From an uncultured Candidatus Saccharibacteria bacterium (lineage in GTDB: Bacteria > Patescibacteriota > Minisyncoccia > Phycocordibacterales > UBA9973), in contig CAYZYV010000001.1 of the NCBI GenBank assembly GCA_964482735.1, forward strand, positions 80,172 through 144,171: 64,000 bases of DNA, read 5' to 3'. Both the position numbers and the translations under genes were made by a program. Positions 6,736 to 40,155 of the stretch are shown one piece after another. The notes beneath the pieces are model-generated. The model did no database searches and had not been told where the DNA came from. It saw only the letters and a program-made list of their open reading frames with translations. The number at the start of each line of letters is the position of its first letter. The stretch's first letter is position 1.

Positions 6736-6765
6736 AAGAAGCCTAAATGGCTTCTTTTTTTCAGT
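6736..6765 (+). terminator. Rho-independent terminator after tRNA-Asp
   Basis: GAAGCC-TAAAT-GGCTTC followed by TTTTTTT. Confidence 0.55.
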
Positions 6766-7060
6766 CGAAGGGACTTGAAAGACGGAGCACGACGGTGCGA
6801 GGCGGGGTCGCGAGATTTTTCAGCAGAAAAATACTTGTGACCAAGTCCCTCGTTTTGTATTTTATTTATATATACTGGGTGATTTTGTTTTTTGCATAAG
6901 AAGGGACTTGAACCGGGGGCTTGCGAAGCCCGCGACAGCGGAAAGCCCGAGTGGAGGTCAATGAAGTGAGATATTTTATGAGTGATAACGAAATAAAATA
7001 TCCACGAGAGTGACCAAGTCCCCCATTTTGCCTGCGTAGGGACTTGAACAGCGGAGTCAT
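6766..7060. repeat. Non-coding block of tRNA-derived fragments and mini-elements (GGGACTTGAA motif five times, both orientations)
   Basis: Inverted copy of the tRNA-Asp 3' end (CAGTCGAAGGGACTTGAA) at 6762-6780. TIR-like GGGACTTGAA / TTCAAGTCCC pairs bracket cores at 6770-6848 and 6899-7020. Confidence 0.55.
6941..7012. repeat. ~62-bp hairpin element, copy A; copy B at 39911-39985
   Basis: GAGTGGRGGTC...GTGAGATATTTTATGAGTGRTAACGAAATAAAATATCCACGAGAGTGACC, about 90% identical between the two loci. Contains a perfect stem GATATTTTAT / ATAAAATATC. Confidence 0.6.
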
Positions 7061-11123: not shown

Positions 11124-13310
11124 TTAACCTTGTATCATTTTTAAAAACTCTTGTTCGGAGATTGTTTTTATTTTTAGTTTCTCTGCTTCTTTTATTTTAC
11201 TTCCTGGGTTCTCTCCTGCTAAAACATACGAAGTGTTAGAAGAAACTGTTCCGGAAACCTTTCCGCCATTTTCTATTATTTTCTTCTTCGCCTCCTCTCT
11301 TGATAAAGTAGGCAATGTTCCAGTCAATACAAAAGTTTTTCCTGTAAAAACTCCTACTTTTTTCTTCTCAGTAATTATTTCTACTCCATTTTCTTTTAAT
11401 TTTTCTATGAAATGTAGGTTGTTTTTGTCTTTGAAAAATTCATATATACTTTTTGAAACTACAGGACCAATGTTTTCTATGCTATTTATTTCTTCTTCTT
11501 TAGCTTCTATTAAATTATCTAAAGTATGAAAGTACTCCGCCAAATCTATAGCTGTTTGTTCCCCTACATGAATAATTCCAAGGGCATAAATAAATCGCCA
11601 AAATGGAACCTTTTTATGTTCTTCGATTGAATTTATTATATTTTCTGCTGATTTATCACCGAATCTTTCTAGACCAGCAAGATCACTTTTTTCGAGGGTA
11701 AATAAATCAGTCGCATCACTGATAAGTCCCTCTTCTTTTAATCTATCCAAAATCTTAGGCCCTATTTCATAAATTTCAAAAACATTCACAAAGTGTTGCA
11801 AACCTCGCCTGTTTCGAGCTGGACAATTTTTATTTGTACAATAAAAAGCTACAGAATTTTTAGCTGGTGAAAAGTTGTTCGGAGAAAAGACTAGCGAGTC
11901 TCGACGGAGCGAGCTTGCTTGAAAGCAAACTGCTTTGCTTTCAAGGTGCTCACGAAGTGATGTGCCGATGTCTTTAGACAGGCACAAACGGGCATTTTTC
12001 GAGTGAATTATATCCGTGCTTTTCGAGGAATTACTTAAACCAGCAATCCTATCCACTCTTCCCCCACATACTGGACAAGAACTTGGCATCTCAAAATTCT
12101 TTTCTTTGCCAGAGCGTAAATCTTTCAAGACTTCAACAACTGCTGGTATAACATCACCGGCCTTTTCAATAATGACAGTGTCTCCTATTTTAACGTCCAA
12201 TCTTTTAATCTGATCGTAATTGTGCAAAGTAGCTTTAGAGACAGTTGATCCAGCTACCAAAGTTGGTTCAAAATGTGCCACAGGTGTTAGAACCCCAGTT
12301 CTACCAACATTAACTGAAATACTCTTAAGTACGGTTGCTGCTTGTTCAGCTTTGTATTTATAGGCAACTTTGAATCTTGGAGCCTTACCTACGATACCGA
12401 GAGTTTCTTGAGTTTTTAAATCTTCTATCGAAATAACTATGCCATCTGTTCCAAAAGGTAAACTTTCTCTAACCTTCTCAACTTCGTTTATAAAATCAAA
12501 AGCCTCGTTTAATACTCCAACTTTTTTAACATATTTATGAGTCAAAAATCCCCACTCTTTAAAGTATTTTTGCTTTTCAGATTGTGTTTGAATTCCTATA
12601 TTAGAATTAACTATTTCCCAAGGATAAAAGCTAAGTTTTCTTTCTTTAACTAGATTTGGATCAAGCTGTCTAAGACTTCCTGCCGCAGCGTTTCTAGTGT
12701 TAGCAAAAGGAGATTTACCGAGCTTCGCTTGTTCTTCGTTTAATTCTTCTAAAACTTTTTTAAGCATTATAACCTCCCCTCTTATCTCTACTTTATCAGG
12801 ATAATTTCCTTTTAGTTTTAAGGGGATAGCTTCTATCATTTTTAAATTTTCAGTCACATCTTCCCCAATCAATCCATCTCCCCTCGTAGCTCCTCGGACA
12901 AAAACTCCGTTTTTATAAGTTAAAATAGCAGTTAAACCATCTAGCTTTAATTCACAAAAATAATCTGTCTTTTTATTTGTAAGTTTATAAATTCTTTCTT
13001 GCCAATCTTCTACTTCTTCAAAAGAAAAAACATCATTTAGGCTTGTTGCCCTTGATTCATGTTTAACTTTACGAAAAGATTCGAGAGGTTTACCTCCCAC
13101 TCTTTCAAGAGTTGATTTTTCTTCTTTTACATCAGGATATTTTTTCTCTAGCCCCCTTAGTTCCCTAACCAGAGAATCATAAACTTCATCTGAAACAGAC
13201 GGACTATCTTGTTCATGATATTCTTTCTGATATCGAGAGATAAGTTCTCTTAAAAATTTTATCCTCTTTAAATCCTGAGAATAATCTTGTGGTAATTTAA
13301 TCTTTGGCAT
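11124..13310 (-). CDS. ligA: NAD-dependent DNA ligase
   Basis: Adenylation motif ELKLDG, OB domain, Zn finger CPVCG...CTNKNC, HhH and C-terminal BRCT. The Zn finger carries an insertion of about 60 aa; see the repeat at 11878-12032. Confidence 0.9.
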   Translation of the reverse strand: MPKIKLPQDYSQDLKRIKFLRELISRYQKEYHEQDSPSVSDEVYDSLVRELRGLEKKYPDVKEEKSTLERVGGKPLESFRKVKHESRATSLNDVFSFEEVEDWQERIYKLTNKKTDYFCELKLDGLTAILTYKNGVFVRGATRGDGLIGEDVTENLKMIEAIPLKLKGNYPDKVEIRGEVIMLKKVLEELNEEQAKLGKSPFANTRNAAAGSLRQLDPNLVKERKLSFYPWEIVNSNIGIQTQSEKQKYFKEWGFLTHKYVKKVGVLNEAFDFINEVEKVRESLPFGTDGIVISIEDLKTQETLGIVGKAPRFKVAYKYKAEQAATVLKSISVNVGRTGVLTPVAHFEPTLVAGSTVSKATLHNYDQIKRLDVKIGDTVIIEKAGDVIPAVVEVLKDLRSGKEKNFEMPSSCPVCGGRVDRIAGLSNSSKSTDIIHSKNARLCLSKDIGTSLREHLESKAVCFQASSLRRDSLVFSPNNFSPAKNSVAFYCTNKNCPARNRRGLQHFVNVFEIYEIGPKILDRLKEEGLISDATDLFTLEKSDLAGLERFGDKSAENIINSIEEHKKVPFWRFIYALGIIHVGEQTAIDLAEYFHTLDNLIEAKEEEINSIENIGPVVSKSIYEFFKDKNNLHFIEKLKENGVEIITEKKKVGVFTGKTFVLTGTLPTLSREEAKKKIIENGGKVSGTVSSNTSYVLAGENPGSKIKEAEKLKIKTISEQEFLKMIQG
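11878..12032. repeat. GC-rich palindromic mini-element inserted in-frame inside the ligA Zn-finger region
   Basis: Local GC far above the surrounding gene. Perfect 12-bp hairpin CTTGAAAGCAAA-CTGC-TTTGCTTTCAAG. Shares GAGCGAGC, AAACTGCTTTGCT and ATATCCGTGCT with the recG and tmRNA-region elements. Confidence 0.5.
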
Positions 13311-27664: not shown

Positions 27665-27669
27665 CGTTG

Positions 27670-27915: not shown

Positions 27916-28038
27916 TTACTTTTTGGTTTTGGAGGCCACGGATTCTTTTGTCCGCTTTGTCACCCTTTTTGGTGACTTGCTTTTTGGAGACCGGGGGTTC
28001 TTTTGCCCGCCAGCGCTTCCAGTATTTGCTCCTGCCAT
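27916..28038 (-). CDS. Candidate 40-codon Lys/Ser/Pro-rich small ORF lying on a 2 x ~60-bp tandem repeat (uncertain: peptide or structured RNA)
   Basis: Hand translation gives MAGANTGSAGGQKNPRSPKSKSPKRVTKRTKESVASKTKK. Starts 12 nt after the radical-SAM stop on the same strand. The underlying DNA forms two repeat units, each with a 6-bp hairpin (GCCAC-TTTTTTA-GGTGGC and GTCAC-CCTTTTT-GGTGAC). Confidence 0.25.
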   Translation of the reverse strand: MAGANTGSAGGQKNPRSPKSKSPKRVTKRTKESVASKTKK

Positions 28039-28049
28039 TTTGTTATTTT

Positions 28050-29192
28050 TTAAAAATTAAACAAATTTGAGAAGAAAAGATATTCTCTTTTTAATTCTTC
28101 TTTACCATAAAGGCTAAACCATTTTTGAGCCCCGAGAGAGTACAATTCTCTAAAATTAGAATTAGCTTCTAATTCAGAGACGTTATGGCTTTCGTTTCCG
28201 AATAATTCTTCCAGTGTGTATTGCATACAATACGGCAACCTGTATGTCGCATCCGCGTCGATAAGAAAAGTCTCTGCTATACACATACTTATAGGAACAT
28301 ATTCGATTCTAATACCATCAATAAGGAAGCTGACACAACTAGAATCAACTAAGACCGTATCTTTTTTGATTTTATTATTTCTCGTAGTTAACATGAACTT
28401 TTTTAAATCTTCTAGTTTATAAAATCTTAGAAAGATTTTACCTTCTCCGGCAAAGGAGTAAATTTTCTTGTATTGATTCCAAAAGGCACTATAATCATCC
28501 AAGACAAAATCGGAATCCTTTGTAACAACTTCAGACGCAGGAGTTACATGTATTTCGTCAACAAGATTATTAGCCAACAAATAATTAGCTGTTTTCTCAA
28601 AATCACAAAAGTTAATTTTTGTGAGAGTAAACAAGCTAGTTACTTTTTTAGCGTAAGACCTCGCCTCTCTTAGCCCAACGACAGCCTCTTCAAAAGACTT
28701 GTTCGAATTTCTCTGAATGTTATGAACTTTTTCCATTCCATCTAAAGAGATGTCAATCCAATCAAATAAGAGACTGCTTTCTTTTAAAATCTTTCCTTGT
28801 TTAATATAAGAGCCATTATCCAATAATCCGATACAGATGTCTGGTCTTGTCTCTTTTATTTTTTTCATTACGGGAATATGCCATCCTTGTAAGATTCTCC
28901 CCTCGTGAACAACAAAAGAATTTTTTGGAAGCTGAGATACAATGTTTAAAATTTTTTGTTCTAAACAATTATTCTCAGATATAACACGAGAAGACTTTTC
29001 TCTTTGAAAAAAACAATGTTTGCAGTTAAGATTACAAGTCCTTTCCATTATCAGAGAACAGATTTTTGGATATTCTCTTTCTAGAGATTTTTCAAGGCCC
29101 CAAATGTTCTTGTGGAAAATATGACTTGAGGTCATTATTTGAAACCATTTATCTATTGTTCCCATATATCTAATTTTTAAATTTTTAAACAA
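28050..29192 (-). CDS. Radical SAM domain protein
   Basis: CNLNCKHC = CxxxCxxC cluster near the N-terminus. 380 aa. C-terminal region has scattered Cys but no canonical SPASM spacing. Confidence 0.7.
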   Translation of the reverse strand: MFKNLKIRYMGTIDKWFQIMTSSHIFHKNIWGLEKSLEREYPKICSLIMERTCNLNCKHCFFQREKSSRVISENNCLEQKILNIVSQLPKNSFVVHEGRILQGWHIPVMKKIKETRPDICIGLLDNGSYIKQGKILKESSLLFDWIDISLDGMEKVHNIQRNSNKSFEEAVVGLREARSYAKKVTSLFTLTKINFCDFEKTANYLLANNLVDEIHVTPASEVVTKDSDFVLDDYSAFWNQYKKIYSFAGEGKIFLRFYKLEDLKKFMLTTRNNKIKKDTVLVDSSCVSFLIDGIRIEYVPISMCIAETFLIDADATYRLPYCMQYTLEELFGNESHNVSELEANSNFRELYSLGAQKWFSLYGKEELKREYLFFSNLFNF

Positions 29193-29382
29193 CTTTTGAT
29201 TAAATTATAAATAAATATACTAATTGGTCAAATAAAGTCAGATAAAATAACAGATAAACGTTAATTTAATCATTGGTTTACAACGTGTTTTGTTAATATA
29301 CTATAGTGTTGTCAGTTTAGTTGACATTTTTAATTAATAGAATACAATATAATTATTAATCTTTTAGGAAAAATAAGAAAAA

Positions 29383-30120
29383 ATGAGCACAATTATTAAC
29401 ACCTTAATGGATCTTGGCCTTACAAACAAAGAAGCCAGTCTTTATTATGCCCTACTAAGGAAAGGAAGGTCTACTGTCCTAGAATTAGCCAAGGAATCTG
29501 GTCTTAAAAGGCCAACGGTTTATTTAACTTTGGATTCATTGAGAAATAAAGGTTTAATTTTAAAAATACCATACGCCAAGAAATCAGTTTATATAGCAAA
29601 GGAGCCGGACGAGTTTTTCAGAGATACTTACAACAAGATAAAGAGAGCTGGTGACAATCTGTCTCAAATAAAAGCCCTTTCTAAAAAGGAAGATAAGGTT
29701 TTTGTTAGATATTACGAAGGAGAGGGAGAGGTCAAAGAATCACTTTTCTACAGAATAGAAGAATTAAAAGGAACCGAAGACGTTGGTTTTTTTGCTAAAG
29801 CTGAAGAGATTAGTCCTTTTTTAATAAAATCATCACACCAATGGAGAGAAGAAAGTAAACACAGAAATATAAAAGTGAAAGGAATTGCTCCTTTTCACCC
29901 TACATTAGAAGAATTTAGAAAAACAGATAAAAATCTAGATCAAGTTTTTAAATCTATACCGATTAGTCTGTACTCTTCTAACTGTTCCATAGATGCCACT
30001 GATTTATTTGTAAGGATTGTTTTATTTAACGAAAATCAATCAGTTATTATAGAAAATAAAGAAATTGTAAAAACAATAAAACAAATTTTTAATATCTGTT
30101 GGGAAAGTATTAAAAATTAA
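29383..30120 (+). CDS. TrmB-family transcriptional regulator (sugar-specific HTH)
   Basis: N-terminal LGLTNKEASLYYALLRKGRSTVLELAKESGLKRPTVYLTLDSL, the TrmB wHTH pattern. Divergent from the radical-SAM gene. Confidence 0.55.
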   Translation: MSTIINTLMDLGLTNKEASLYYALLRKGRSTVLELAKESGLKRPTVYLTLDSLRNKGLILKIPYAKKSVYIAKEPDEFFRDTYNKIKRAGDNLSQIKALSKKEDKVFVRYYEGEGEVKESLFYRIEELKGTEDVGFFAKAEEISPFLIKSSHQWREESKHRNIKVKGIAPFHPTLEEFRKTDKNLDQVFKSIPISLYSSNCSIDATDLFVRIVLFNENQSVIIENKEIVKTIKQIFNICWESIKN

Positions 30121-30156
30121 TTATTTCTCAACGAGGTTTTTTGATATAATAATTCC

Positions 30157-30873
30157 ATGAGAATATCAGTTTTAATCATTGCGCATAATGAGGAAGAAAT
30201 AATTAAAAAATGTCTTTACTCTGCTATAAACCAAACCGTTAAACCAGATGAGATTATTTTAGTTGCCCATAATTGTACAGATAGGACGATTGAAATTGCT
30301 CAGGAGTTTAAAACAATAAAGATAATTCGATTTGATGGACCTCGAGGCACTGCTTACCCTAGAATAGAAGGATTGTCTCACGTATCGAATGAAAATGACA
30401 TAATTCTATGTATAGATGGTGATTGTGTAGCTAAAGAAAACTGGGTTGAAGAAATGTCGCACACTTTGAATCTCAACAACAACATTTTGGTTGGAAGTTA
30501 TATCAAATTTAAGGGCGATTTATTTTTATCAATTTCTAATATATTTAATAAAATAAAATGTAAAACTTCTGGAGAAAAAGCAGTTCGCTGGCTATGGGGA
30601 GGAAGTTTCGCCTTTTGGAATAAAGATAAGGATTTAGTAAAAAATATATTTGAAAAAACAATAGAATTATCAAGGGATTTACAACTTAGTAGAAATCCTG
30701 AAGACTTCTTACTTGCAAAGTTTTTAAAGAAAAAAGGAAACATAGAAATCACAAATAAAACTTTTGTGGTAGCTATGGCTAAAGAAAAATCTATTTTTGA
30801 ATCTTTCAAAAGGAATAGAGAGAATAACAAAAATGCTGAAAGGATAGAAAAATACTTTTTAACCTTAAAATAA
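30157..30873 (+). CDS. Family 2 glycosyltransferase
   Basis: VLIIAHNEEEII...DGDC: GT-A fold with DxD-like motif. Confidence 0.7.
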   Translation: MRISVLIIAHNEEEIIKKCLYSAINQTVKPDEIILVAHNCTDRTIEIAQEFKTIKIIRFDGPRGTAYPRIEGLSHVSNENDIILCIDGDCVAKENWVEEMSHTLNLNNNILVGSYIKFKGDLFLSISNIFNKIKCKTSGEKAVRWLWGGSFAFWNKDKDLVKNIFEKTIELSRDLQLSRNPEDFLLAKFLKKKGNIEITNKTFVVAMAKEKSIFESFKRNRENNKNAERIEKYFLTLK

Positions 30874-30945
30874 AGGTTATTTTGCTTGACAAAATCACAA
30901 AAACGTGTATACTCTATATGAAAACCTTAAAAAACATTTACAGCT

Positions 30946-31287
30946 ATGACAAAAACACAAGAAAGGTACTCGGATGAGGACCTTAATTTCTTCCGCGGGA
31001 TTATTCTCGAAAAGCTTTCTGCAGCAAAAGCTGAGTACAAAATCCTTACAGGAGCTGCGTATGATGATGACCCCAAAGATCTTGGGGAACGATCAAAGGA
31101 TGATGAGTCGAAAGACTTAAATTCCATCCTAGCGAAAAGGCAGAAAAAGTTCATTGAGGGACTGGAAGGTGCCCTCATAAGAATCGAGCAGAAAACTTAC
31201 GGGATTTGCCGTAAAACCGGCAAACTAATCCCAAAAGAGAGGCTTATCCTTGTTCCTCATGCTACACTGTGTGCCGAGGAAAAATAA
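30946..31287 (+). CDS. DksA/TraR-family protein
   Basis: Coiled-coil N-terminus with the DDDPKD acidic tip motif and a C-terminal C-x-C finger remnant (GICRKTG...HATLC). Confidence 0.55.
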   Translation: MTKTQERYSDEDLNFFRGIILEKLSAAKAEYKILTGAAYDDDPKDLGERSKDDESKDLNSILAKRQKKFIEGLEGALIRIEQKTYGICRKTGKLIPKERLILVPHATLCAEEK

Positions 31288-31352
31288 TTTATCTCAAAAA
31301 GACGTAAAGCGCCCAAGCAATATAGCAAGGGCGCTTTTTTTATTTTTAATAT

Positions 31353-32567
31353 TTATTTTTCTTTAGATAATCGTAATGTTTCTTTGGCGATTTCTTCCAT
31401 TTCATCTGTTTTGACAATCAAAACCTTGGCCTTGGAATCTTTTTTACTTATTTCTACTTCTACTCCTTCAGACTTATCGTTTATTTCATTATCTATTTCT
31501 ATTCCCAAAAATTCCATATCTTTACATATTCGGTCTCTCATAATAAAAGATCTTTCCCCTACTGTCCCAGCTAAGATTAGAAGATCCAAGCCTCCCAGGA
31601 TAGCAGACATCTTACCAATCTGTTGTTTTACTCGATTAACATAAACACGTAGTGCCAAAGCAGAATCTTCGTGTCCGTCTTTTTCGTATTGTAACAATTC
31701 TCGGATATCAGAGCTTTTACCTGAAAGTCCAAGTAGTCCACATTCATTATTTAAATACTTTTCCATTTTTCTAGGACCCTTCTTTAATTTTTCAGACAAG
31801 TAAAGAATAGCTCCTGCATCTATATCTCCAACTCTCGTTGCCATGACAAGACCAGGTAAAGGTGTGAACCCCATTGAAGTATCTATACTCTGACCATTTT
31901 TAACAGCCGTTACACTTCCCCCTCCGCCCAAGTGACAAACAACAATTTTTTCTGGAAGATTACCTAGTGTTTTCTCTGCTTTAGAGACAACAGACTGAAC
32001 CGAGATTCCATGATATCCGAACATTTTCAATCCAAGTTTTCGGCTATCATTTATTGGAATTGCATAAAGCCTACCGTGATCAGGAATAGTTGAGTGAAAT
32101 GCACTATCAGAAACTCCATAGATTGGGAATTTTTCACCAAAGGATTTTCTTATTGTTTTTATTTCTTCAAGAGCTGGTCCTAGGTGAAGTGGAACTTTTT
32201 TTAAAGCCACTTTTGCAAGTTTCATGTATTCTTTATCTATAAGACGGTTGGTCAAGAAGTAATCTCCTGGGGCAACAATTCTTATCCCCACACTATCAAT
32301 GTCTGACTTTTTTTCTATAATTTTATTTTTTACCAACGAATCTATAATAAAATTTATAGCCTCAACATAATTCTTTTTTGTTATTTCTGTTTTTTCTTTT
32401 TTATCATCAAAAAATTCAGTTACAATCGGACTGCCATTTTCCATTTCGAAGTGAGCAGTATATACTCTCTCTTCATCTTTATAAAATGCATACTTTTTTG
32501 ATGCACTTCCTGTATTTACAATCAAATATTTCTTTTGCATAAGTTTTTTCAATGTAATAGTTTGCAA
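31353..32567 (-). CDS. ackA: Acetate kinase
   Basis: 404 aa. VLIVNTGSASKKYAFY, VCHLGGGGSVTAV and GTVGERS motifs of the acetate/propionate kinase family. Confidence 0.85.
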   Translation of the reverse strand: MQTITLKKLMQKKYLIVNTGSASKKYAFYKDEERVYTAHFEMENGSPIVTEFFDDKKEKTEITKKNYVEAINFIIDSLVKNKIIEKKSDIDSVGIRIVAPGDYFLTNRLIDKEYMKLAKVALKKVPLHLGPALEEIKTIRKSFGEKFPIYGVSDSAFHSTIPDHGRLYAIPINDSRKLGLKMFGYHGISVQSVVSKAEKTLGNLPEKIVVCHLGGGGSVTAVKNGQSIDTSMGFTPLPGLVMATRVGDIDAGAILYLSEKLKKGPRKMEKYLNNECGLLGLSGKSSDIRELLQYEKDGHEDSALALRVYVNRVKQQIGKMSAILGGLDLLILAGTVGERSFIMRDRICKDMEFLGIEIDNEINDKSEGVEVEISKKDSKAKVLIVKTDEMEEIAKETLRLSKEK

Positions 32568-32833
32568 TAAAAATAATTTGATTTTCGCTGTCGCGTAGTT
32601 TCCCTTATCGTCTGTTCGCTTAAAAGCTCACATCGACGATTTCTTTCAGAACCAGACAAATCGTAAAGTAGTTTACGATTTGTCCCACTCTGGGGTAAAG
32701 CGCAAGAAAATTAAATTATTTTTATGAAAAACTATCCATTATATTTATTTTTTAAAATTAATAACCAATAGAGTATAGCACTTTTTATCTCTTTGTGCTC
32801 ATCAATTGTTAAAAATTTTGGTATAATGAACAT

Positions 32834-32965
32834 ATGAAAATAGAACTATCAAAAGCACAAACCATAATACTTCTTATGATTTTTATTGCTATTGGTGGAA
32901 TAGTTCTATATAGCGATACCAACCCAAACAATTTTTCACCCCTAGACCATGTATTTAAACGATAA
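32834..32965 (+). CDS. Possible 43-aa membrane peptide, leaderless-like
   Basis: MKIELSKAQTIILLMIFIAIGGIVLYSDTNPNNFSPLDHVFKR. A TATAAT sits 6 nt upstream. Overlaps the recG start by 17 nt. Confidence 0.25.
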   Translation: MKIELSKAQTIILLMIFIAIGGIVLYSDTNPNNFSPLDHVFKR

Positions 32966-35219
32966 AATAGAATCTCATTTTCGAATAGATATTAACCAAA
33001 AGAAAGCTCTAATAAAGCTAGGGCTTAATACTATTTCTGATTTGTTATTTTACTTTCCTTTTCGGTACTCAAACATAAGTGAATTCAGAAATATCAATAC
33101 TTTAGAAGATGGAGAATTGGTGACCATCATCGGCAAGGTTTCTAATCTTAAGACCAAGAAAGGGTTTAAGAGCAAAATCCCTATGGGACAAGCAACAATT
33201 ACTGATATGACAGGAAAAATAAACATTATCTGGTTCCACCAGCCATATTTAGCAAAAATGATAAAAGATGGAGCAACTGTTAAGGTAACAGGTAAGGTCT
33301 CAAATAGCAAAACTTACGGATTAACTTTAACTAATCCAGAAATTAGTAAAGAGGATATTTTGCCAATAGATATTAGTGATTCTTTGTTTAATAACCAGGA
33401 AAACATTTCTCAATTTGGCTTCCCTATATACGGAGAAACAAGAGGCATAACTTCTAAGTGGATTTATCATGCTATTAATAAAATCCTTAAGCAAGACTTT
33501 ATAAAGGGAATTTCAGACTATTTACCAAAAGAGATTTTAGATAAATACAAATTACCAACCCTTCACACTGCTCTTGTCTGGATACACACCCCACAAAAAA
33601 AAGAACATGCTGAAATTGCAAGAAAAAGATTCGCTTTCGAAGAAGTTTTCTTTATCCAATTGTCTCGATTACAAGAAAGAAAAAGGTACGAGGAGCTATT
33701 TTCTTATAAATTAAAAATAGACAATGACGATATCAAGGACTTCACTTCTCGTTTTCCATTCTCTCCCACCCTCGCACAAAAAGAAACCATTAAAACAATT
33801 TTGGATGATTTAAAGAAAGATAAACCAATGTCTCGTCTTATCGAAGGTGATGTTGGAAGCGGAAAAACTTTTGTCGCTGCGACAATTGCATATTCGGTTA
33901 TCAAGAATAGACCAGCTGGCCAAGATTTTGGAAATATTCAAGTCGCCTATATGGCTCCGACAGAAGTCTTAGCTACTCAACTCTTCGAAAATTTTATAAA
34001 ATATTTTGATCATACTGGAATATCCATAGGTCTAATTACTTCTTCAGGATGTCGTAAGTTTCCTAGCAAAAGTGCTGCTTGGGAAAATGGGAAACAAATT
34101 CACACTTGGACAACTATTTCTAAAAACCAGTTATTAAAATGGGTTAAAAATGGAGAAATACCTATTGTTATCGGAACACACTCTCTGATTTCTAAATCAG
34201 TTGATTTTGAAGATTTAGGTTTAGTTGTTATTGATGAGCAACATCGCTTTGGAACAAACCAAAGAATGAAACTAGCTAAAAAAGAAGGCCACTCCCCTCA
34301 CTACCTTTCCATGACTGCCACCCCTATTCCTCGAACTCTCGCTTTGACTATCTACGGAGATCTTGATTTATCTATCATAGACGAAATGCCAGCCGGAAGA
34401 AAAAAAGTTATCACTGAAATAGTTCCTGAAAATAAAAGGGAGTTGGCCTACGACAAAATTCGTGAAGAATTAAAAGCTGGCCGTCAACTTTATGTTATTT
34501 GCCCAAAAATCGAAAATGGAGATGGTGGCGAGATCGAGATTATTGATTCCGAGAGACCAGCGAGTGCGACGGCACGAGCTCGAGGAATTTTTCAGCAGAA
34601 AAATATCCGTGCTCTCGGAATCAATAATCTCGATCTCAAAAGCGTATCTTCCGAAGCAAAAAGATTAAAGAAAGAAGTTTTCCCTGAATACGAAATTGCA
34701 ATTATGCACAGTAAAATGAGTAAACAAAAAAAAGAACAGGTCATGAAAGACTTCGAAGATCATAAGATTGATATACTCGTCTCAACTTCTGTAATTGAAG
34801 TTGGAGTTAATGTTCCAAATGCCACAGTTATCGTTATCGAAGGAGCAGAAAGATTTGGGCTCGCTCAACTCCACCAGCTTCGTGGAAGAGTTATTAGATC
34901 AACTTATCAATCGTATTGTTACCTGTTTGCTAATGCAAAAGCGGATAAGACAATCGACAGATTGAAAGCACTTACCAAAGCTGCTAATGGTTTTGAACTT
35001 GCCGAATTAGATTTACAACTTCGAGGAGCAGGACTTCTTTCTGGAGACAAACAATGGGGTGTAAGTGACCTAGCTATGGAGGCTATGAAAAATATAAAAA
35101 TGGTAGAAGCTGCCCGTAGTGAAGCAAAAGAAATCATAGAAAAAGACGTTGAACTGAGAAATCACCAAACCCTTGCAAACACATTAAAAAACAAGCATCT
35201 AAACTTGCATTTTGAATAA
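32949..35219 (+). CDS. recG: ATP-dependent DNA helicase RecG
   Basis: 756 aa. Wedge domain, helicase motifs DVGSGKT, DEQHRFG, SATPIPRT and HQLRGRVIRS. Carries a 36-aa in-frame insertion encoded by the element at 34530-34637. Confidence 0.9.
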   Translation: MYLNDKIESHFRIDINQKKALIKLGLNTISDLLFYFPFRYSNISEFRNINTLEDGELVTIIGKVSNLKTKKGFKSKIPMGQATITDMTGKINIIWFHQPYLAKMIKDGATVKVTGKVSNSKTYGLTLTNPEISKEDILPIDISDSLFNNQENISQFGFPIYGETRGITSKWIYHAINKILKQDFIKGISDYLPKEILDKYKLPTLHTALVWIHTPQKKEHAEIARKRFAFEEVFFIQLSRLQERKRYEELFSYKLKIDNDDIKDFTSRFPFSPTLAQKETIKTILDDLKKDKPMSRLIEGDVGSGKTFVAATIAYSVIKNRPAGQDFGNIQVAYMAPTEVLATQLFENFIKYFDHTGISIGLITSSGCRKFPSKSAAWENGKQIHTWTTISKNQLLKWVKNGEIPIVIGTHSLISKSVDFEDLGLVVIDEQHRFGTNQRMKLAKKEGHSPHYLSMTATPIPRTLALTIYGDLDLSIIDEMPAGRKKVITEIVPENKRELAYDKIREELKAGRQLYVICPKIENGDGGEIEIIDSERPASATARARGIFQQKNIRALGINNLDLKSVSSEAKRLKKEVFPEYEIAIMHSKMSKQKKEQVMKDFEDHKIDILVSTSVIEVGVNVPNATVIVIEGAERFGLAQLHQLRGRVIRSTYQSYCYLFANAKADKTIDRLKALTKAANGFELAELDLQLRGAGLLSGDKQWGVSDLAMEAMKNIKMVEAARSEAKEIIEKDVELRNHQTLANTLKNKHLNLHFE
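34530..34637. mobile_element. MITE-like palindromic element (108 bp, perfect 26-bp TIR) inserted in-frame in recG
   Basis: Left arm GAGATCGAGATTATTGATTCCGAGAG (34530-34555) is the exact reverse complement of the right arm (34612-34637). The 56-bp GC-rich core contains CGACGGCACGAGCTCGAGG and the hairpin ATTTTTC-AGCA-GAAAAAT, also present at 6812-6830. Confidence 0.65.
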
Positions 35220-35221
35220 AA

Positions 35222-35252
35222 AAAGGGAGAACAACTCGTGCTCCCCCTCGCA
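35222..35252 (+). terminator. Terminator after recG
   Basis: GGGAGAACAACTCGTGCTCCCC hairpin. Confidence 0.45.
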
Positions 35253-35450
35253 TACCATCAGATTATTCTGGTGATATTTTTTATCTTTCATAAAATCTTT
35301 TCTATTCTTATTCAGAATAAAACCCGCTTTCGTTTGTAACTACTAACGACAATTTATTTCAGATAGAGCTTGATCCTTTAATTGAAGAAGATTGCTCGAT
35401 TCTATCTCCGGATAAAATCAAAGTACCACAGCACAAACAAAAAATCAACC

Positions 35451-35485
35451 ATTATCACTTTGAAACGGCCGTCAGATATGATAAT
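35451..35485. promoter_or_regulatory. Palindromic site ATTATCA-N19-TGATAAT containing the AACGGCCGTCAGAT core, upstream of the wHTH gene
   Basis: Inverted arms around the CGGCCG palindrome. A near-copy lies downstream of the gene at 36011-36049. Confidence 0.5.
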
Positions 35486-35494
35486 ATATAAAGT

Positions 35495-35992
35495 ATGAAA
35501 AATGATATTAGTTTAAATGTTGAAGATAAATTACAAAGTATTGGTGATTTATTAATAGCAATGCTTTGTAGCGCTAGAAATTCAAAACGTTTTCGTTCTA
35601 TAATTAGAGAAAGAGAGTTTATGAGATACAACAAGGAAAGTGTTCGCGTTTCCCTAACTAGACTAAGCAAGAAAGGATATGTAAGAAATTTAAACGGTGA
35701 GTGGAAAATAACCGATAAAGGAAAAAAATACTCACAATTTAATAACAAAAATGAATACATGTCTTCACCTTTTGAGAAAAGAGCAGAATGTAATACTATT
35801 TTATCTTTTGATATTTCAGAAAACTCAAGAAAAATAAGAAACTGGCTTAGAAACCAACTAAAAATTTTTGGGTATAAAATGCTACAGCAAAGTCTTTGGA
35901 TTGGACCAGGACCATTACCTCAAGAATTTCTAAAAAAACTTAAAGAATTAAAAATTCGTGAAAATATAAAAATATTCACAGTTAGTAAATAA
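35495..35992 (+). CDS. Winged-helix DNA-binding protein with C-terminal Cas2/VapD-like motif (paralog A)
   Basis: wHTH pattern VSLTRLSKKGYVRNLNGEWKITDKG. C-terminal ILSFDISENSRKIRNWLRNQLKIFGYKMLQQSLWIGPGPLP resembles Cas2 beta1-alpha1-beta2 (YDI...R..L..L..G.R.Q.SVF). Paralog at 50916-51395. Confidence 0.5.
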   Translation: MKNDISLNVEDKLQSIGDLLIAMLCSARNSKRFRSIIREREFMRYNKESVRVSLTRLSKKGYVRNLNGEWKITDKGKKYSQFNNKNEYMSSPFEKRAECNTILSFDISENSRKIRNWLRNQLKIFGYKMLQQSLWIGPGPLPQEFLKKLKELKIRENIKIFTVSK

Positions 35993-36010
35993 AAAATAAT
36001 TTTTACATTC

Positions 36011-36049
36011 TTATTATCATTATTAACGGCCGTCAGATGATGATAATAA
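36011..36049. repeat. Second copy of the AACGGCCGTCAGAT palindromic site (TTATTATCAT-N16-ATGATAATAA)
   Basis: Perfect 10-bp inverted arms. Direct repeat of the site at 35451-35485. Confidence 0.5.
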
Positions 36050-36115
36050 ATAAAAAATAAATCTATCTTTGGAAGATATATAAATAAACTTTTTAACCTA
36101 TTAAAATTACTTTTG

Positions 36116-36189
36116 TCCGTCCTCTAGGATTCGAACCTAGGACCCCAGAGGTATAAGCTCTGTGCTCTAACCAGCTGAGCTAAGGACGG
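36116..36189 (-). tRNA. tRNA-Ile (anticodon UAU)
   Basis: CCGTCCT / TAGCTCAGCTGGTTAGAGC / CAGAG-CTTATAC-CTCTG / CTAGG-TTCGAAT-CCTAG / AGGACGG-A. Anticodon TAT read directly from the loop. Confidence 0.75.
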
Positions 36190-36240
36190 AAGTCTGGTTT
36201 ATTATTTAAAACTAAACTATTACAACCATACACTTCCCGC

Positions 36241-36273
36241 CTAACCAAAACAGCTAAGGACGGAAGTCTGGTT
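36241..36273 (-). repeat. Degenerate duplicate of the tRNA-Ile 5' end plus 5' flank (decoy copy with a GTTTT D loop)
   Basis: CTAACCAAAACAGCTAAGGACGGAAGTCTGGTT at 36241-36273 versus CTAACCAGCTGAGCTAAGGACGGAAGTCTGGTT at 36169-36201. Same CAGC to GTTT substitution as in the tRNA-Met decoys. Confidence 0.6.
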
Positions 36274-36386
36274 AAAGACATATTAACCAAAAAAACAGTT
36301 ATTTGCAAATTTTACCGAACACAATTAAAGAAACAAGGCCTTGAACAGTTAATTATAAAAACCTTACTTTCGTAAGGTTTTTATAA

Positions 36387-38273
36387 TTAATCTTCTTTTT
36401 TCTTTGGGATTATTCCGTTGGCAATTAGAATATCGTTATATTCTTTTTGTTCTAGGGTCTCTACTTCAATAAGCTTCTTGGCTATCACATCTAGAACATT
36501 TCTCTTTTCTGTGATTACCGTTCTAGCCTTAGCGAAAGCGTCTTTCATTATCTTTGAAACTTCTTCATCAATAACAGCGCTAACCTTCTCTGAATATTCT
36601 TTATCATCTACGCCTTGTCCAAAGATCGTTCTTCCACCATCGCTTTCGAGAGCTATTGGACCAATATCATCACTCATCCCCCATCTTGTAACCATAGCTC
36701 TGGCTAAACTAGTTGAGACCTGAAGATCGTTTGATGGGCCTGTAGTAATATCACCAAAGACTTCTTGCTCTGCAACATAGCCTCCGAGAGACATAGCGAT
36801 ATCATCAAGGAATTCTCTCTTGCTTTGCAATTTCTTTTCTTCCAACGGAAGCTTTAGTGTGTAACCACCAGCATGCCCACGAGAAACAATAGAAATTTTA
36901 TGAACAGGGTCTGCATCAGGAAGACATGAAGCAACAAGTGCATGCCCTGCTTCATGATAAGCAACAATTTCTTTCTCTTTGCCAGTTAACAAGTGACTCT
37001 TTCTCTCTGGACCCATCATGACTTTTTCAATAGAACGAATAAGATCATATTGAGAAACCTTTTTCCTGTCTTCCCTTGCTGCAAGAATTGCCCCTTCGTT
37101 CATAATTGAATATAGGTCTGCTCCAGAAAATCCTGGTGTACGTTCAGCAATCACTTTGAGATCAACATCCTCAGCAAACGGCTTCTTTCTGGCGTGAATA
37201 TTTAAAATTTCTTCTCTATCTTCTCTGTCAGGTAAATCAAGCAAGACTCTTCTATCAAAACGTCCTGGGCGAAGAAGAGCAGGATCAAGAACGTCAGAAC
37301 GGTTTGTTGCCGCCATAACAATCACCTTTTCGTTAGGTTCGAAACCATCCATTTCTACGAGTATCTGGTTTAAAGTTTGTTCCCTTTCATCATTTCCTCC
37401 TCCTACACCAGTTCCTCTCACTCGTCCAACAGCATCTATTTCATCTATAAAAATTATTGATGGAGCAGCTCTTTTGGCCATTTTAAATAAATCTCGAACA
37501 CGTGATGCTCCAACCCCAACGAACATTTCAACGAATTCTGAGCCAGACAAATGGAAGAATGGGACTGAGGCTTCACCGGCAACCGCACGAGCTAAGAGTG
37601 TTTTACCTGTACCAGGAGCACCTGTAAGAATTACCCCCTTTGGTATACGAGCCCCAATGTCCAAAAATTTCTTTGGATTTTTCAAAAAGTCTACAATTTC
37701 TTTTAATTCTTCTTTTGCTTCCTTAACACCAGCAACATCCTTAAATGTGACTTTATTATTTTTATCATTTGGATCAGTAATACGAGCTTTTGATTGCCCA
37801 AAAGAGAATGCTTGCATACCCTGTCCTTTCGCTTGTCTTGTTAAGGTCCAAACAAAAAATGCTATCAAAAGAACTGGTAGGGCAAAAGGTAATATTGCCA
37901 ATAAGACATAACCAAAGCTTGACTGATTTTTAATTTCTATAGGAGTTGCAGAAATTGTTTCTCCTGTGATTCCATAGTTAGATAAAGTTTCAGATAAAGA
38001 ACTTTCAGTTTCTTTTTTTGCTTTACCTTTTGTTCCATCTTTAAAATTAATATTAATGTTTTCTCCAGAGATAACAATTTTTTCAACAGAACCGTCACTA
38101 ACACTTTTAGCAACATCTGAAATTGTTAAATTTTTAACTTCTTCTTTTTTCTCTGAAATTAATGTATAAGCCAAAGTAATACTAAAAAATATCAAAATCG
38201 CTATCGTAATTTGATTCATTAGCCCAGGAACCTTTGGTTTTAATTGTTTTTTATTATCTTTACTTGTATTCAT
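36387..38273 (-). CDS. ftsH: ATP-dependent zinc metalloprotease FtsH
   Basis: Two TM segments. AAA Walker [12 protein letters not shown], and the Zn site HEAGHAL. Confidence 0.9.
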
Positions 38274-38358
38274 AAGTAGTATGATTATACCCCAAAAACT
38301 AAATAGTTAAAACAATTCCACCCCTAAGAAAAGTATCTTAGGGGTGTATGTTTAGACG

Positions 38359-38739
38359 TTATTTCTTCTGACGGAAATGTTTTGCAAGGCCTTTCCCTTT
38401 GTTTGCTTTTGCCAAAGGATTAGGCCATGGATTCCAATCTGAATAGAAATAAGTAGGTGGTTTTCTTTTCTCGTCAAAGAGAATGAAATCTTTTTGATGA
38501 AAAAAATTCTTCTTTTCTTTCGGACGAATCGGAGGTTCTGCGTCTTTATGGCTTGTAAGCACACAAAGTTTTAAGTCTTCAAGAAACAAAGGTCTGTACT
38601 CCAAAGAACTCGTGTGGAACCTCTCGTTTCTTTTTTCTAGGTAGGCTTTATGGGCCTCCATAATTTCTCCTATACTAATAGGAGAAACTGTGTCTATTTC
38701 TATCGAAACGACACAAATAAGAACAACTATTAAACTCAC
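38359..38739 (-). CDS. Hypothetical protein (126 aa)
   Basis: ORF only, no motif recognised. An alternative overlapping ORF at 38352-38564 is less likely. Confidence 0.3.
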   Translation of the reverse strand: MSLIVVLICVVSIEIDTVSPISIGEIMEAHKAYLEKRNERFHTSSLEYRPLFLEDLKLCVLTSHKDAEPPIRPKEKKNFFHQKDFILFDEKRKPPTYFYSDWNPWPNPLAKANKGKGLAKHFRQKK

Positions 38740-38855
38740 GGTCTAAGCTTTAATTATTTACCCCCATATATACCACAAAAGAAGTTAAATTCAAAACATC
38801 TAAAAGTCTCTAGGAGTCTATTTGAAAATAATCTATTTGCTGATAACATATAAGT

Positions 38856-39299
38856 ATGGCGATATTTTTGGACAACAGAAAAGCTCACTTCAACTACTCT
38901 ATAGAGGATACTTTTGAGGCAGGGATAGAATTGCTTGGTTTTGAAGTGAAATCAATTAAAAAAGGTCAGGGTAATCTAAACTCGGCTTTTTGTATCGTAA
39001 GAGGTGGAGAGGCTTATATAATAGGACTCCACGTTCCACCATATCAGCCAAACAATACTGACACAACTTATGACCCAGACAGAACCAGAAAGCTCTTGCT
39101 ATCAAAAAAAGAAATTAAGAAACTAGCCGACAAGGATGACATTAAAGGTTTGACTCTAGTCCCCCTTTCAATGTATAGTAAGGGTCCATACATCAAAGTC
39201 TCTGTAGCGGTTGCTCGTGGTAAAAAAGTTTTTGATAAAAGGGAAACAATTAAAAACCGTGACTTGGACAGAGAAATGGCTAGAGAGTATAAAAGATAG
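38856..39299 (+). CDS. smpB: SsrA-binding protein
   Basis: 147 aa. NRKAHFNYSIEDTFEAGIELLGFEVKSIK and the C-terminal basic tail match SmpB. tmRNA follows 16 nt downstream. Confidence 0.9.
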   Translation: MAIFLDNRKAHFNYSIEDTFEAGIELLGFEVKSIKKGQGNLNSAFCIVRGGEAYIIGLHVPPYQPNNTDTTYDPDRTRKLLLSKKEIKKLADKDDIKGLTLVPLSMYSKGPYIKVSVAVARGKKVFDKRETIKNRDLDREMAREYKR

Positions 39300-39315
39300 T
39301 TCGTTGAAAAATTTT

Positions 39316-39704
39316 GGGGATGATCGGCTTCGACAAGTGGAATCATCTTATATATGCATGTAAAGTACTCAGGAATCTTTTGAAACTTCCTGAAAAAGAC
39401 TAAGTGCAAACAAAGTCGCAAAGGTTGCATCACCCTATGCTTCGGCATTCGGTAATCCAGCTTTCGCTTTCGCCTAAACGGCCAGAGCGATGTCTGCTCT
39501 TTTGACACCCGATATAAAGAGTAGGCATCATTCATCGGGTTAAGGTTTTGCAGGTGCTTGTCGCAAAATCTGACAAGTTAAAGCTCGATATTTATCTTTT
39601 TTGTGTGTTCTCTAGGATAAATATTTAAAACCAATGAACACAATAAACATGTAGATTTATTTAGGAGTTTCATTTGCACGCGGGTTCGATTCCCGCCATC
39701 TCCA
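39316..39704 (+). ncRNA. ssrA: tmRNA (ssrA)
   Basis: 5' end GGGGATGATCGGCTTCGAC and 3' end GCGGGTTCGATTCCCGCCATCTCCA form a tRNA-Ala-like acceptor/T arm with the G3:U70 wobble. Resume codon GCA at 39406 opens the tag ORF ANKVAKVASPYASAFGNPAFAFA, with stop TAA at 39475-39477. Confidence 0.8.
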
Positions 39705-39711
39705 CACGTTG

Positions 39712-39748
39712 AAAAAAGAGTCCGTCGCAAGACGGCCTTTTTTCTTGT
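39712..39748 (+). terminator. Terminator after tmRNA
   Basis: CCGTC-GCAA-GACGG followed by CCTTTTTTC. Confidence 0.5.
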
Positions 39749-39751
39749 GTG

Positions 39752-40068
39752 GAGATGAGCGAGCAAACTGCTTTGCTCGCGTGCGGGAATCGAAAGGCTT
39801 TTCCGTACGAACGAAGTGAGGTGGAAAAGCACCCGCGACCGTAGGGCGAGATTCCCGTTTCAATGATGGCGGGAATCGAACCGAGCTCCGACAAAGTCCG
39901 CGAAGCGGCCGGAGCGAGTGGGGGTCGAGCGAGTGAGATATTTTATGAGTGGTAACGAAATAAAATATCCACGAGAGTGACCGATGAACCTATTCTGCTT
40001 TGCTCGCGTGCGGGAATCGAAAGGCTTTTCCGTACGAACGAAGTGAGGTGGAAAAGCACCCGCGACCG
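39752..40068. repeat. Repeat-dense non-coding block downstream of tmRNA
   Basis: Holds inverted copies of the tmRNA 3' end (39752-39762, 39873-39893) and a 9-bp hairpin GCGAGCAAA-CTGC-TTTGCTCGC. It also holds a 73-bp exact direct repeat at 39772-39842 and 39998-40068, plus hairpin element copy B (39911-39985). Confidence 0.65.
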
Positions 40069-40155
40069 TTTAATATTACATAATGGCTGGGATAGAGCTG
40101 GGGAGCTCAAATTGTGTCTATAGGGAGAGAATTAATTATTTAATTCTCTCTTTTT

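Follow-up and report, generated by a model that had tools for sequence, protein, structure and literature searches.

The recG gene in a 64,000-nucleotide stretch of contig CAYZYV010000001.1 (positions 80,172 to 144,171 of the forward strand; this whole stretch is called the window below, and positions are counted from its first letter), from an uncultured bacterium deposited as Candidatus Saccharibacteria, carries a 108-bp segment that is bounded by an exact inverted repeat and read through in frame. What is this palindrome, and does it belong to RecG or to something else that has settled there? The evidence assembled here makes it probable that the segment is one copy of a selfish, nonautonomous family of hairpin repeats, similar to the Rickettsia palindromic elements (RPEs) and the repetitive extragenic palindromes (REPs), that is translated and tolerated in AT-rich Paceibacteria/Parcubacteria of the candidate phyla radiation (CPR).

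The two 26-nt arms of the segment are complementary at 26 of 26 positions and lie 56 nt apart (34530-34555 and 34612-34637), as a preliminary description of this DNA, made from its letters, had stated. Among the window's inverted repeats with arms no more than 300 nt apart, this pair is listed first. The segment begins at a codon boundary, since (34530-32949) mod 3 = 0, and reads EIEIIDSERPASATARARGIFQQKNIRALGINNLDL with no stop, again in agreement with that description. As RNA, the 108 nt fold with -62 kcal/mol (z = -11 against shuffles). The core between the arms had been called GC-rich and unlike its surroundings; it is richer in G and C (52%, compared with 42% in the arms and 35% in the remaining recG), but only moderately so. 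Two other public runs, SRR10083294 and SRR10083292 (loci L111 and L112), each assembled an identical recG including the insert. The inverted repeat is thereby reproduced in independent assemblies, and the insert is no assembly artifact.

The host open reading frame (ORF) has homologues with the Pfam domains RecG_wedge, DEAD, and Helicase_C, some of them named at the source as RecG of Candidatus Paceibacterota or Nomurabacteria (CPR Parcubacteria), and it aligns to the solved RecG of T. maritima (1gm5) with an E value of 9e-122. In this alignment, query residues 13 to 526 and 560 to 737 abut at 1gm5 residue 593, and residues 527 to 559 (33 aa, 99 nt) are therefore extra; the alignment picks up again at N560-LDLKS. 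The segment is also missing from the recG DNA of 15 related loci (L002, L004 to L006, L008 to L012, L014, L023, L025, L026, L028, and L029). In the shortest insert-free relative, L029, recG is 96 nt shorter than in the window, and ...GACAACAGT (...AGT) runs straight into CTCGATCTAAAAAG. In both comparisons, then, the 9 outermost nt of the right arm in the window (CTCGATCTC, LDL) correspond to ordinary recG sequence. The earlier estimate of about 36 added residues is accordingly right as to an insertion relative to orthologues and the solved protein, and slightly too large: the excess is 33 aa against 1gm5 and 96 nt against L029. We dropped L029 as a pristine empty site; because its flank is of the LDLKS type found in filled alleles, it may be a deletion derivative of such an allele, and alone it cannot prove which arm is native.

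An AlphaFold2 model of the window RecG (82 homologues; mean predicted local distance difference test score [pLDDT], 67.9) gives residues 521 to 563 a pLDDT of 25 to 33 and no secondary structure. They lie between a strand at 513 to 517 (YVICP) and a helix at 561 to 577. The insert had been placed between the two helicase lobes, and whether it sat in a loop or in the protein core had been left to modeling. It follows directly on the YVICPKI strand, which we take to be helicase motif IV, and lies inside the second lobe. Here it is predicted to form a disordered surface loop early in the second RecA-like lobe, not an interlobe linker. The recG copy would be transcribed and translated with its gene, adding about 33 residues, and ATARARGIFQQK is among the peptides expected if the element is translated. 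In the recG of locus L109, the usual site (2977-3108) holds a decayed AT-rich remnant whose frame is still open, which argues that the insert is translated rather than removed.

The segment is not unique. Of the two probes that the preliminary description had named for finding further copies, the repeat arm has no second match with up to three mismatches elsewhere in the window (0 of 100 shuffles gave any), whereas the core leads to a family. The P3 hairpin of the core (ATTTTTCAGCAGAAAAATA) and the CGACGGnnCGAG motif are found again after tRNA-Asp (6790-6833), and CGACGGnnCGAG also occurs at 11902-11913. A first covariance model (R1), built from five recG inserts and the tRNA-Asp copy (unit A), and a second (R2), built from 81 sequences and run on the window with filters off, both give three copies in the window: in recG, after tRNA-Asp, and in ligA (Table 1). 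The recurrence of the core beside tRNA-Asp, which had been noticed at the outset, is thus borne out. The third copy is in frame in ligA (ORF 11124..13310, minus strand) and has the opposite orientation to the gene; in an alignment with E. coli LigA (2owo), residues 426 to 490 of this LigA are extra, falling between residues 421 and 426 of the solved protein in the Cys4 zinc finger. R1 also matches relatives' loci outside recG (L023, L004, L002, and L018). A scan of metagenome contigs with a strict core pattern returned 120 stretches, and the covariance model gave 81 matches at an E value of ≤1e-3 across 85 loci in metagenome and relatives' contigs. The core is common to more than 90 loci in many samples and organisms, and the conserved unit consists of this core of about 56 to 60 nt plus a closing stem of about 5 to 6 bp.

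TABLE 1 Coordinates of the recG element, its parts, its host gene, and the other copies of the family in the window
Feature	Position	Strand	Description
recG, host gene, 756 aa	32949..35219	+	From the ORF list, Pfam domains of homologues, and alignment to 1gm5
Left arm of closing stem P1, 26 nt	34530..34555	+	GAGATCGAGATTATTGATTCCGAGAG; encodes EIEIIDSER; 100% complementary to 34612-34637; without counterpart in insert-free recG
Conserved 56-nt core, three-way junction	34556..34611	+	Covariance model scores of 97.7 bits (R1) and 88 bits (R2)
Hairpin P2	34560..34579	+	GCGAG-UGC-GACG-GCA-CGAGC; 4-bp covarying apical stem and constant GACG loop above a putative tandem G.A / A.G motif
Hairpin P3	34584..34608	+	A/U-rich stem with AGCA loop: GGAAUUUUUC AGCA GAAAAAUAUCC
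Right arm of P1, 26 nt	34612..34637	+	Outer 9 nt (34629-34637), CTCGATCTC = LDL, align with ordinary recG sequence
Second family copy, unit A	6762..6853	+	41 nt past tRNA-Asp; covariance model match at 6767-6851, 52.9 bits (R1, E = 1e-15) and 50.9 bits (R2)
Third family copy, in ligA	11875..12030	+	Covariance model match at 11875-11960, 23.4 bits (R1) and 21.8 bits (R2), E about 1e-4; other hairpins nested at the expected place of P3

The consensus of the family is a three-way junction formed by the closing stem P1 and the hairpins P2 and P3, with a constant 3' CGUGC. P2 has a 4-bp covarying stem (GUGC/GCAC, GCGC/GCGC, GGCC/GGCC, or GCUC/GAGC) and a constant GACG loop, in the pattern GNNC-GACG-GNNC; its pairs, at alignment columns 32 to 35 and 95 to 98, are 99% paired, with GC, CG, UA, and AU as alternatives. 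At the base of P2, the sequences suggest a tandem G.A / A.G motif. P3 (helices 5 and 6) is 97.5 to 98.7% paired, with double changes in 10 of its 10 pairs. Across 79 distinct sequences, 96.2% of cells are paired, and all 25 modeled pairs change on both sides. None of 500 shuffles reached the observed values, and shifted registers fell to 38 to 59% paired. Single-sided (G.U) intermediates are rare in P2 and P3. Among mismatches in the arms, scored symmetrically on the modeled strand, G.U exceeds C.A by 82 to 34 (p about 1e-5), and one strand is therefore favored for folding; this preference showed no tie to transcription (orientation of intergenic copies) or to replication direction (GC skew). 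The core is a well-supported structured motif, absent from Rfam: at gathering thresholds over the window, Rfam 15 found tRNAs and tmRNA only, and at an E value of ≤10 over the three element regions it gave only chance-level matches, such as plant microRNA precursors, and no ribozyme family. The layouts of hammerhead and twister ribozymes, bulge-helix-bulge introns, group I and II introns, retrons, attC sites, and bridge/omega RNAs were considered by eye, and none fits. A scan of IMG/VR for a viral origin returned 75 matches to the core pattern, all attributable to chance, and none to the covariance model.

The copies sit in many places. Of 92 examined, about 60 are intergenic or in short open frames, and the other 32 occupy open frames of 150 aa or more. 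The hosts identified through Pfam are RecG (two sites), UvrD/PcrA (three loci, one site), TsaD (three loci, one site), topoisomerase I (TopA), PheT, a PCRF/RF-1 release factor, a class-V aminotransferase, a GT4 glycosyltransferase, phosphoglucomutase (PGM/PMM), and RsmE; LigA was identified by its alignment to 2owo. The same DNA core thus occurs in at least 11 unrelated protein families as well as in intergenic DNA. DNA-metabolism genes are prominent among these hosts, and replication and repair genes have likewise been reported as hosts of intragenic REPs in other bacteria (PMC3733652). At independent in-gene sites, the element has the orientation of the gene seven times and the opposite orientation five times. 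Its core encodes ATARARGIFQQKNIRA, ADGPS..., or ARRRE... in the three forward frames and EHGYFSAEKFLVLAPSRSQ and other peptides in several reverse frames. Since the core is read in many frames and on both strands, the conserved object is the nucleic acid and not the peptide. All in-gene copies seen keep the frame open and sit where orthologues vary, although preservation of the frame is partly circular, as an open frame was itself the criterion for calling a copy "in-gene."

Copies between genes are not preferentially oriented with respect to neighboring genes (28 same, 37 opposite; p = 0.32), and on this ground a sense-strand RNA role in 3' untranslated regions was discarded. A replication-linked orientation, as in IS200/IS605-like elements, is not supported either (element strand against GC skew, 45:28; p = 0.06; copies not independent). 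In the forward frames of intergenic copies, 0.43 to 0.57 are open compared with 0.22 expected, and in-gene sites show no matching orientation bias. There is no general enrichment past tRNAs, with 6 of 92 copies within 400 nt of a tRNA and about 4 expected; the link to tRNAs is confined to the unit A subtype (GGGGUCGCG...), which lies 35 to 59 nt downstream in the same orientation. Small GIY-YIG ORFs were checked by tblastn as a possible partner and rejected: one lies past tmRNA in L029, it is absent from the window, and elsewhere the association is inconsistent. In L029 (7674-7910), this 78-aa ORF takes the place past tmRNA where the window (39706-40155) has three GC-rich units, and it is followed by a remnant, GACCGATGAACC, of a 3' end of the unit B type (described below). 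Similar ORFs are found in L007, L011, L116, L132, and L166, with no consistent link to the element. Concerted evolution of cores within a genome was considered and rejected (within-contig pairs, 0.66; between-contig pairs, 0.70; the test is biased by the route by which contigs were found).

The long stem behaves differently from the core. P1 has a median length of 19 bp and reaches 30 bp, and the arms are about 95% complementary within each copy. In 111 pairs of copies with a mean core identity of 95.6%, the outer arms are 34 to 37% identical, which we take to be about the chance level for AT-rich sequence. Only the 5 to 6 bp or so beside the core (GARAG/CTYTC) are semiconserved between copies. 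The long stem is therefore local and not carried by the element, and the perfect terminal inverted repeat (TIR) of the preliminary description is not one of the transposon type. Beside a tRNA or tmRNA gene, one arm is an exact local inverted copy of that gene's 3' end. Past tRNA-Asp and past the tmRNA gene, 18/18 inverted copies of each gene's own 3' part open a unit; in unit A, the left arm (CAGTCGAAGGGACTTGAA) is the 18/18 inverted copy of positions 6706-6723 of tRNA-Asp. In L148, the tRNA-Ser 3' end with an 11-nt trailer is followed by a terminator, then by an inverted copy that has diverged, then by the core, and last by 30 nt that repeat the tRNA end and trailer in direct orientation; the order is similar in loci L124 (tRNA-Leu) and L004 (tRNA-Ile). 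An element integrated at a tRNA gene through tyrosine-recombinase att sites would show a direct repeat of the tRNA 3' end around the inserted DNA and an integrase; the 30-nt direct repeat of L148 brackets about 135 nt, has no integrase beside it, and comes with the additional inverted copy, an arrangement that concerns tRNA-linked copies and not recG. Some copies are enclosed between (G)GAGCGA, 5' of the element, and GAGCG, 3' of it (for example, L151:1633-1713, L163:6803-6881, L143:2462-2542, and L114:4185-4265). These brackets are the same in every copy that has them and thus are no duplication of varied targets; they may extend the helix through tandem G.A pairs like those at the P2 base, or mark nesting in another element or a preferred target.

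GC-rich structured units with other cores are found beside the same genes: units B and C past tRNA-Asp (6898-7030 and 7038-7100) and three units past the tmRNA gene (39783-39860, 39865-39990, and 40008-40075). Each of these starts with an inverted copy of the T-arm of the upstream gene. Unit B and the second tmRNA unit have a long core in common (..GAGATATTTTATGAGTGnTAACGAAATAAAATATCCACGAGAGTGACC), with arms matched to their own neighboring gene, and a direct repeat of about 75 nt is present at 39765-39840 and 40000-40075.

How old is the insertion in recG? The preliminary description had proposed aligning orthologues to confirm that it is lineage specific. The alignment gave the contrary answer: among the 120 closest RecG homologues, the site is filled in 59 and empty in 61, in a patchy pattern. 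The empty sites comprise 55 with a conserved insert-free linker (D-EEKIK-LDVKS) and 6 with very short linkers; the short-linker genes P0027, P0061, P0068, and P0102 look like deletion derivatives of filled alleles. The 59 filled genes have inserts of several core subfamilies, and all of the more distant RecG genes (54 to 69% identity) lack the insert. On a neighbor-joining tree with the insert region masked, at least 26 changes between the filled and empty states are needed. The situation that had been named as speaking against an element, a segment conserved in the RecG of close relatives and without copies elsewhere, does not hold here: relatives are polymorphic, and the core recurs in the genome.

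Comparison with the recG of L031 gives evidence of exchange. The two genes are 100% identical over 33309-34088 and 34989-35168, and between these stretches lies a tract of about 900 bp with 83 to 95% identity, at the center of which the inserts are 53 to 55% identical. L031 has an insert like the one in L007, a locus with flanks that share only about 75% identity with the window. The divergent stretch is an imported recombination tract centered on the insert. In addition, the window recG core shares 85 to 90% identity with those found in other organisms in PheT, UvrD, TsaD, and intergenic loci and only 58 to 85% with those at the orthologous recG site. Within RecG, a compensated frameshift turns IFQQKNIR into KFSAENFR and keeps the hairpin. 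Core subfamilies also differ by lineage at the UvrD site, just before the DIAVLYR motif (L121:5413-5498 and L123:12474-12559 against L142:6106-6188), and at the TsaD site (L157:2089-2168 and L181:5816-5897 against L140:668-750). An all-against-all search of flanks for recent filled and empty pairs outside recG gave distant ones only, such as PGM in L023 and L007 (about 76%), with unreadable junctions. These findings point to an old and permissive site in recG, where filled alleles persist alongside empty ones across the clade, homologous recombination shuffles the two, and the element is lost to decay or replaced. Rather than a lineage-specific novelty of this genome, the insert is an old, polymorphic, recombining allele present in about half of the related RecG genes.

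Beyond recG, the window (20122-39662) and L031 (JGI Ga0116247_10001122) form a mosaic, with 99% identity over 20122-27758, a stretch of about 2.9 kb present only in the window (27852-30759), and about 94% identity beyond. Recombination between related strains thus appears to be frequent. Two further RecG genes are of note. In L110 (11588-11701), the usual site is filled by an unrelated GC hairpin, CCTCCCCCTTAGCAGGGGGAGG, and in L148 (1847-1926), RecG holds the element at a second site, just ahead of the SMTATPIPR motif.

Several points weigh against the view of the recG palindrome as a copy of a selfish repeat. The distribution of the core is all that suggests its mobility, and no enzyme was found: no transposase, integrase, or reverse transcriptase is linked to any copy, in a window and loci without systematic transposase annotation. 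The flanks of 87 copies, inspected by eye, contain no copy-specific direct repeats and no target-site duplication. The inverted copy of tRNA-Asp is no simple outward extension of the terminator palindrome, as a 7-nt asymmetry intervenes. Orthologous sites in RecG, UvrD, and TsaD with differing subfamilies would need either site-specific reinsertion or allele exchange, and direct support for exchange comes from recG only, in the tract that differs between the window and L031. The strong covariation, together with the excess of G.U over C.A, could mean a selected RNA function and not selfish DNA. Translation of the insert, finally, is deduced rather than observed, and its neutrality or tolerance is presumed.

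The main rival takes up the covariation and holds that the core is a functional structured RNA, such as a self-cleaving ribozyme, an intron-like sequence removed from the transcript, or a motif for cis regulation or protein binding; the recG copy would then act at the level of RNA, with no real change to the protein. The very strong covariation of P2 and P3, the constant GACG and AGCA loops and 3' CGUGC, the mismatch bias in the arms, and a fold far more stable than that of shuffles all agree with this, as does the retention of complementarity while orthologous inserts diverged to about 55% identity. Nevertheless, with seven in-gene sites in one orientation and five in the other, the modeled strand is not in the mRNA of several hosts, and intergenic copies are unoriented relative to their neighbors. 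The frame is kept in every in-gene copy counted, which would be needless if the segment were removed from the RNA (an argument that the definition of in-gene makes partly circular), and the decayed L109 copy, no longer able to fold, is still in frame in an intact recG. Rfam 15, including its ribozyme families, has no match even at an E value of ≤10, and the perfect 26-bp stem has no bulge-helix-bulge geometry. An intron would also lie antisense to the gene at 5 of the 12 independent in-gene sites, with the frame kept in all (which is at the same time how these sites were defined). Moreover, template switching could yield covariation without selection (PMC8794818). We therefore regard a functional RNA as unlikely. 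Only slightly less favored is a conventional MITE (miniature inverted-repeat transposable element) or REP moved in trans by a transposase, for instance an IS200/IS605-type Y1 transposase or a RAYT acting on single-stranded hairpins, with the variability of the arms being secondary. Small size, two subterminal hairpins, and the lack of a target-site duplication and of a conserved TIR fit single-strand transposition of the IS200/IS605 type. The favored folding strand fits as well, and the GAGCGA ... GAGCG flanks of many intergenic copies could be a target or cleavage motif. GACG is also the complement of the CGTC tag of one REP superfamily, although in CGTC REPs the tag lies at the end of an 8- to 9-bp stem and not in a loop (PMC3733652). 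No transposase was seen beside any copy in the incompletely annotated window, however, and the small GIY-YIG ORFs near some copies are inconsistently linked. Nor does the element strand show a significant bias with respect to GC skew (45 to 28, p = 0.06), and locus-specific arms of 15 to 30 bp would be left unexplained.

The remaining two explanations do without a mobile family. If the segment were an adaptive, lineage-specific RecG loop under selection at the protein level, its palindromy would be incidental, and it would be clear why roughly half of the related RecG proteins have kept it, in every case in frame and at a single surface position. The same core nevertheless turns up in intergenic DNA and in no fewer than 11 unrelated protein families, where differing frames and both strands yield unrelated peptides, and within RecG the shift from IFQQKNIR to KFSAENFR leaves the hairpin intact. 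The loop is predicted by AlphaFold2 to be disordered, its presence is patchy beside a conserved insert-free allele, and in L110 the same site holds an unrelated GC hairpin; such a loop is very improbable. We give even less credence to the palindrome being no mobile element at all, but a local template-switch mutation or an assembly artifact. Template switching can indeed create perfect hairpins in one step (PMC8794818), and perfect palindromes are known from chimeric assembly. Against both origins stand the core common to more than 90 loci in many samples and organisms, the inserts at the recG site in many independent metagenomes, and the identical recG in two further independent assemblies.

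If the segment is a copy of a selfish repeat, as we think probable, its long arms call for a mechanism. One that we put forward tentatively is intramolecular template switching during replication, which, at the stable hairpin, would both create the arms and keep them perfect. Template switching can produce a perfect hairpin in one step and repair stems, and the direct-inverted-direct pattern is a product of replication template switching (PMC8794818; PMC13334657, on small inverted triplications). At the loci studied here, the process would consist of quasi-palindrome correction and extension, leading to an X - inverted X - X "inverted triplication." It would also explain the double changes with few G.U intermediates.

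A more far-reaching scheme, which we consider rather doubtful, is a possibly new mode of insertion in which a hairpin core of about 60 nt enters together with an inverted duplication of the adjoining 15 to 30 bp of target, each copy thereby building its own stem. The core might cap a broken end that is then opened off center, as in P-nucleotide formation, or replication template switching might also copy the core between loci with no transposase. Selection acting on the folded single strand would then preserve the complementarity of the arms. If this scheme is true, these CPR genomes contain a self-propagating structured element that reshapes essential proteins (RecG, LigA, UvrD, TopA, TsaD, and PheT, as well as a release factor) and gives rise to recombination hot spots.

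Among known systems, the family is closest in behavior to the RPEs (Ogata et al. 2000; PMC10969869), as the preliminary description had suggested. Both are small palindromic repeats in a reduced, AT-rich genome with no known transposase, inserted in frame in many unrelated housekeeping genes and in intergenic DNA in a manner compatible with protein fold and function. The repeat described here is dispersed in the same way, with 3 copies in the window, 81 covariance model matches elsewhere, and at least 11 host families. Its in-gene copies are stop-free and in frame at places that should tolerate them, judging from the gaps relative to the RecG and LigA structures and from the AlphaFold2 loop. 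Unlike RPEs, which measure about 100 to 150 bp, are conserved end to end, and encode a family peptide (PMC10969869), this family conserves only the core of about 60 nt, has site-specific arms of 15 to 30 bp, and uses all frames. Its hosts are CPR bacteria (Paceibacteria) rather than Alphaproteobacteria, and the likeness is one of behavior. REPs with GTAG or CGTC tags and their REPIN doublets are also short GC-rich stem-loops that can form larger hairpins from head-to-head pairs, and CGTC REPs have no dedicated transposase (PMC3733652). As with RPEs, in-frame copies of these REPs occur within genes, those for replication and repair in particular (PMC10969869, PMC3733652), and hosts here include RecG, LigA, UvrD, and TopA. 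A REP, however, is a single hairpin of 20 to 40 nt with a terminal tetranucleotide tag and a 3-nt tail, whereas our core is a three-way junction with GACG in the P2 loop, and the big stem is built from local sequence and not from two inverted repeat units as in REPINs.

Bacterial MITEs (Correia, ERIC, BOX, and RUP) resemble the family in being nonautonomous, about 100 bp long, capable of forming RNA hairpins, and sometimes intragenic in frame (PMC10969869). They differ in having conserved TIRs that match a parent insertion sequence and, usually, target-site duplications; both features were looked for here and not found, nor was a parent insertion sequence found. Fungal mitochondrial genomes, which are AT-rich, contain GC-rich mobile modules known as GC clusters, double-hairpin elements, and byp elements. 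These too are GC-rich hairpins, in part double ones, that invade compact AT-rich genomes including coding regions by an obscure mechanism, but they are organellar and unrelated in sequence, and byp elements are skipped by the ribosome rather than translated. To our knowledge, site-specific long arms have not been described for GC clusters or byp elements. Such arms, perfect reverse complements taken from neighboring sequence, are more like template-switch (quasi-palindrome) mutations, which can repair a stem in one step (PMC8794818), and the triplets after tRNA genes are like the direct-inverted-direct triplets of small inverted triplications (PMC13334657). Template switching is a mutational process, however, and leaves the spread of a conserved core to new loci unexplained.

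In the searchable literature, we found no description of such elements in CPR bacteria, Parcubacteria, or Patescibacteria, in line with the impression given in the preliminary description, and no element that makes inverted target duplications. The element is new for this phylum and unusual in its site-specific arms; its distinctive features are the conserved three-way-junction core, the arms taken from local sequence, and the occurrence in CPR bacteria. In-frame selfish DNA within genes has so far been known mainly from Rickettsia and a few REP-rich bacteria, and it is widespread in minimal-genome Paceibacteria. Extreme genome reduction, then, does not exclude intragenic parasites, and part of the odd insertions in CPR proteins may be repeat derived rather than adaptive. 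Such elements inflate and diversify essential proteins (by about 33 aa in RecG and about 65 aa in the LigA zinc finger) and could mislead homology modeling and phylogeny. The site-specific arms, the inverted tRNA and tmRNA 3' ends, and the insert-centered tract also offer a natural system of hairpins seeding inverted duplications and recombination.

The window contains further repeats. A partial duplicate of tRNA-Thr(GGU) at 5660-5775 (minus strand) has a 40-nt GC hairpin, CCCCGCCTGCAAAAGCTATGCTTTAAGCATTGCGGGCAGG, in its D-loop; ARAGORN calls no tRNA there even without the hairpin, which suggests a pseudogene. The same hairpin family has two tandem copies at 63122-63200, just downstream of an rplB-like ORF (63237-63998, minus strand). 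The CCCCGCCTGCAAAAGCTATGCTTTAAGCATTGCGGGCAGG hairpins are a second palindromic repeat family, unrelated to the recG element. Fragments of tRNAs, be they partial, direct, or inverted, crowd the whole tRNA cluster at 5550-7100. At 5940-6000 and 6215-6300, for example, the 5' half of tRNA-Met is duplicated, and there is also a tandem duplication of 41 nt in which the first bases of the tRNA-Met gene at 6293 occur again. A 138-nt island at 49894-50031, with about 64% GC in a genome of 34% GC, has no Rfam match at gathering thresholds and overlaps a dubious ORF of 99 aa; it could be a structured RNA or another repeat. Spacer-free palindromes are found at 1333-1378 (23 + 23 nt, 100% complementary, between convergent ORFs) and at 376-413 (19 + 19 nt, 95% complementary).

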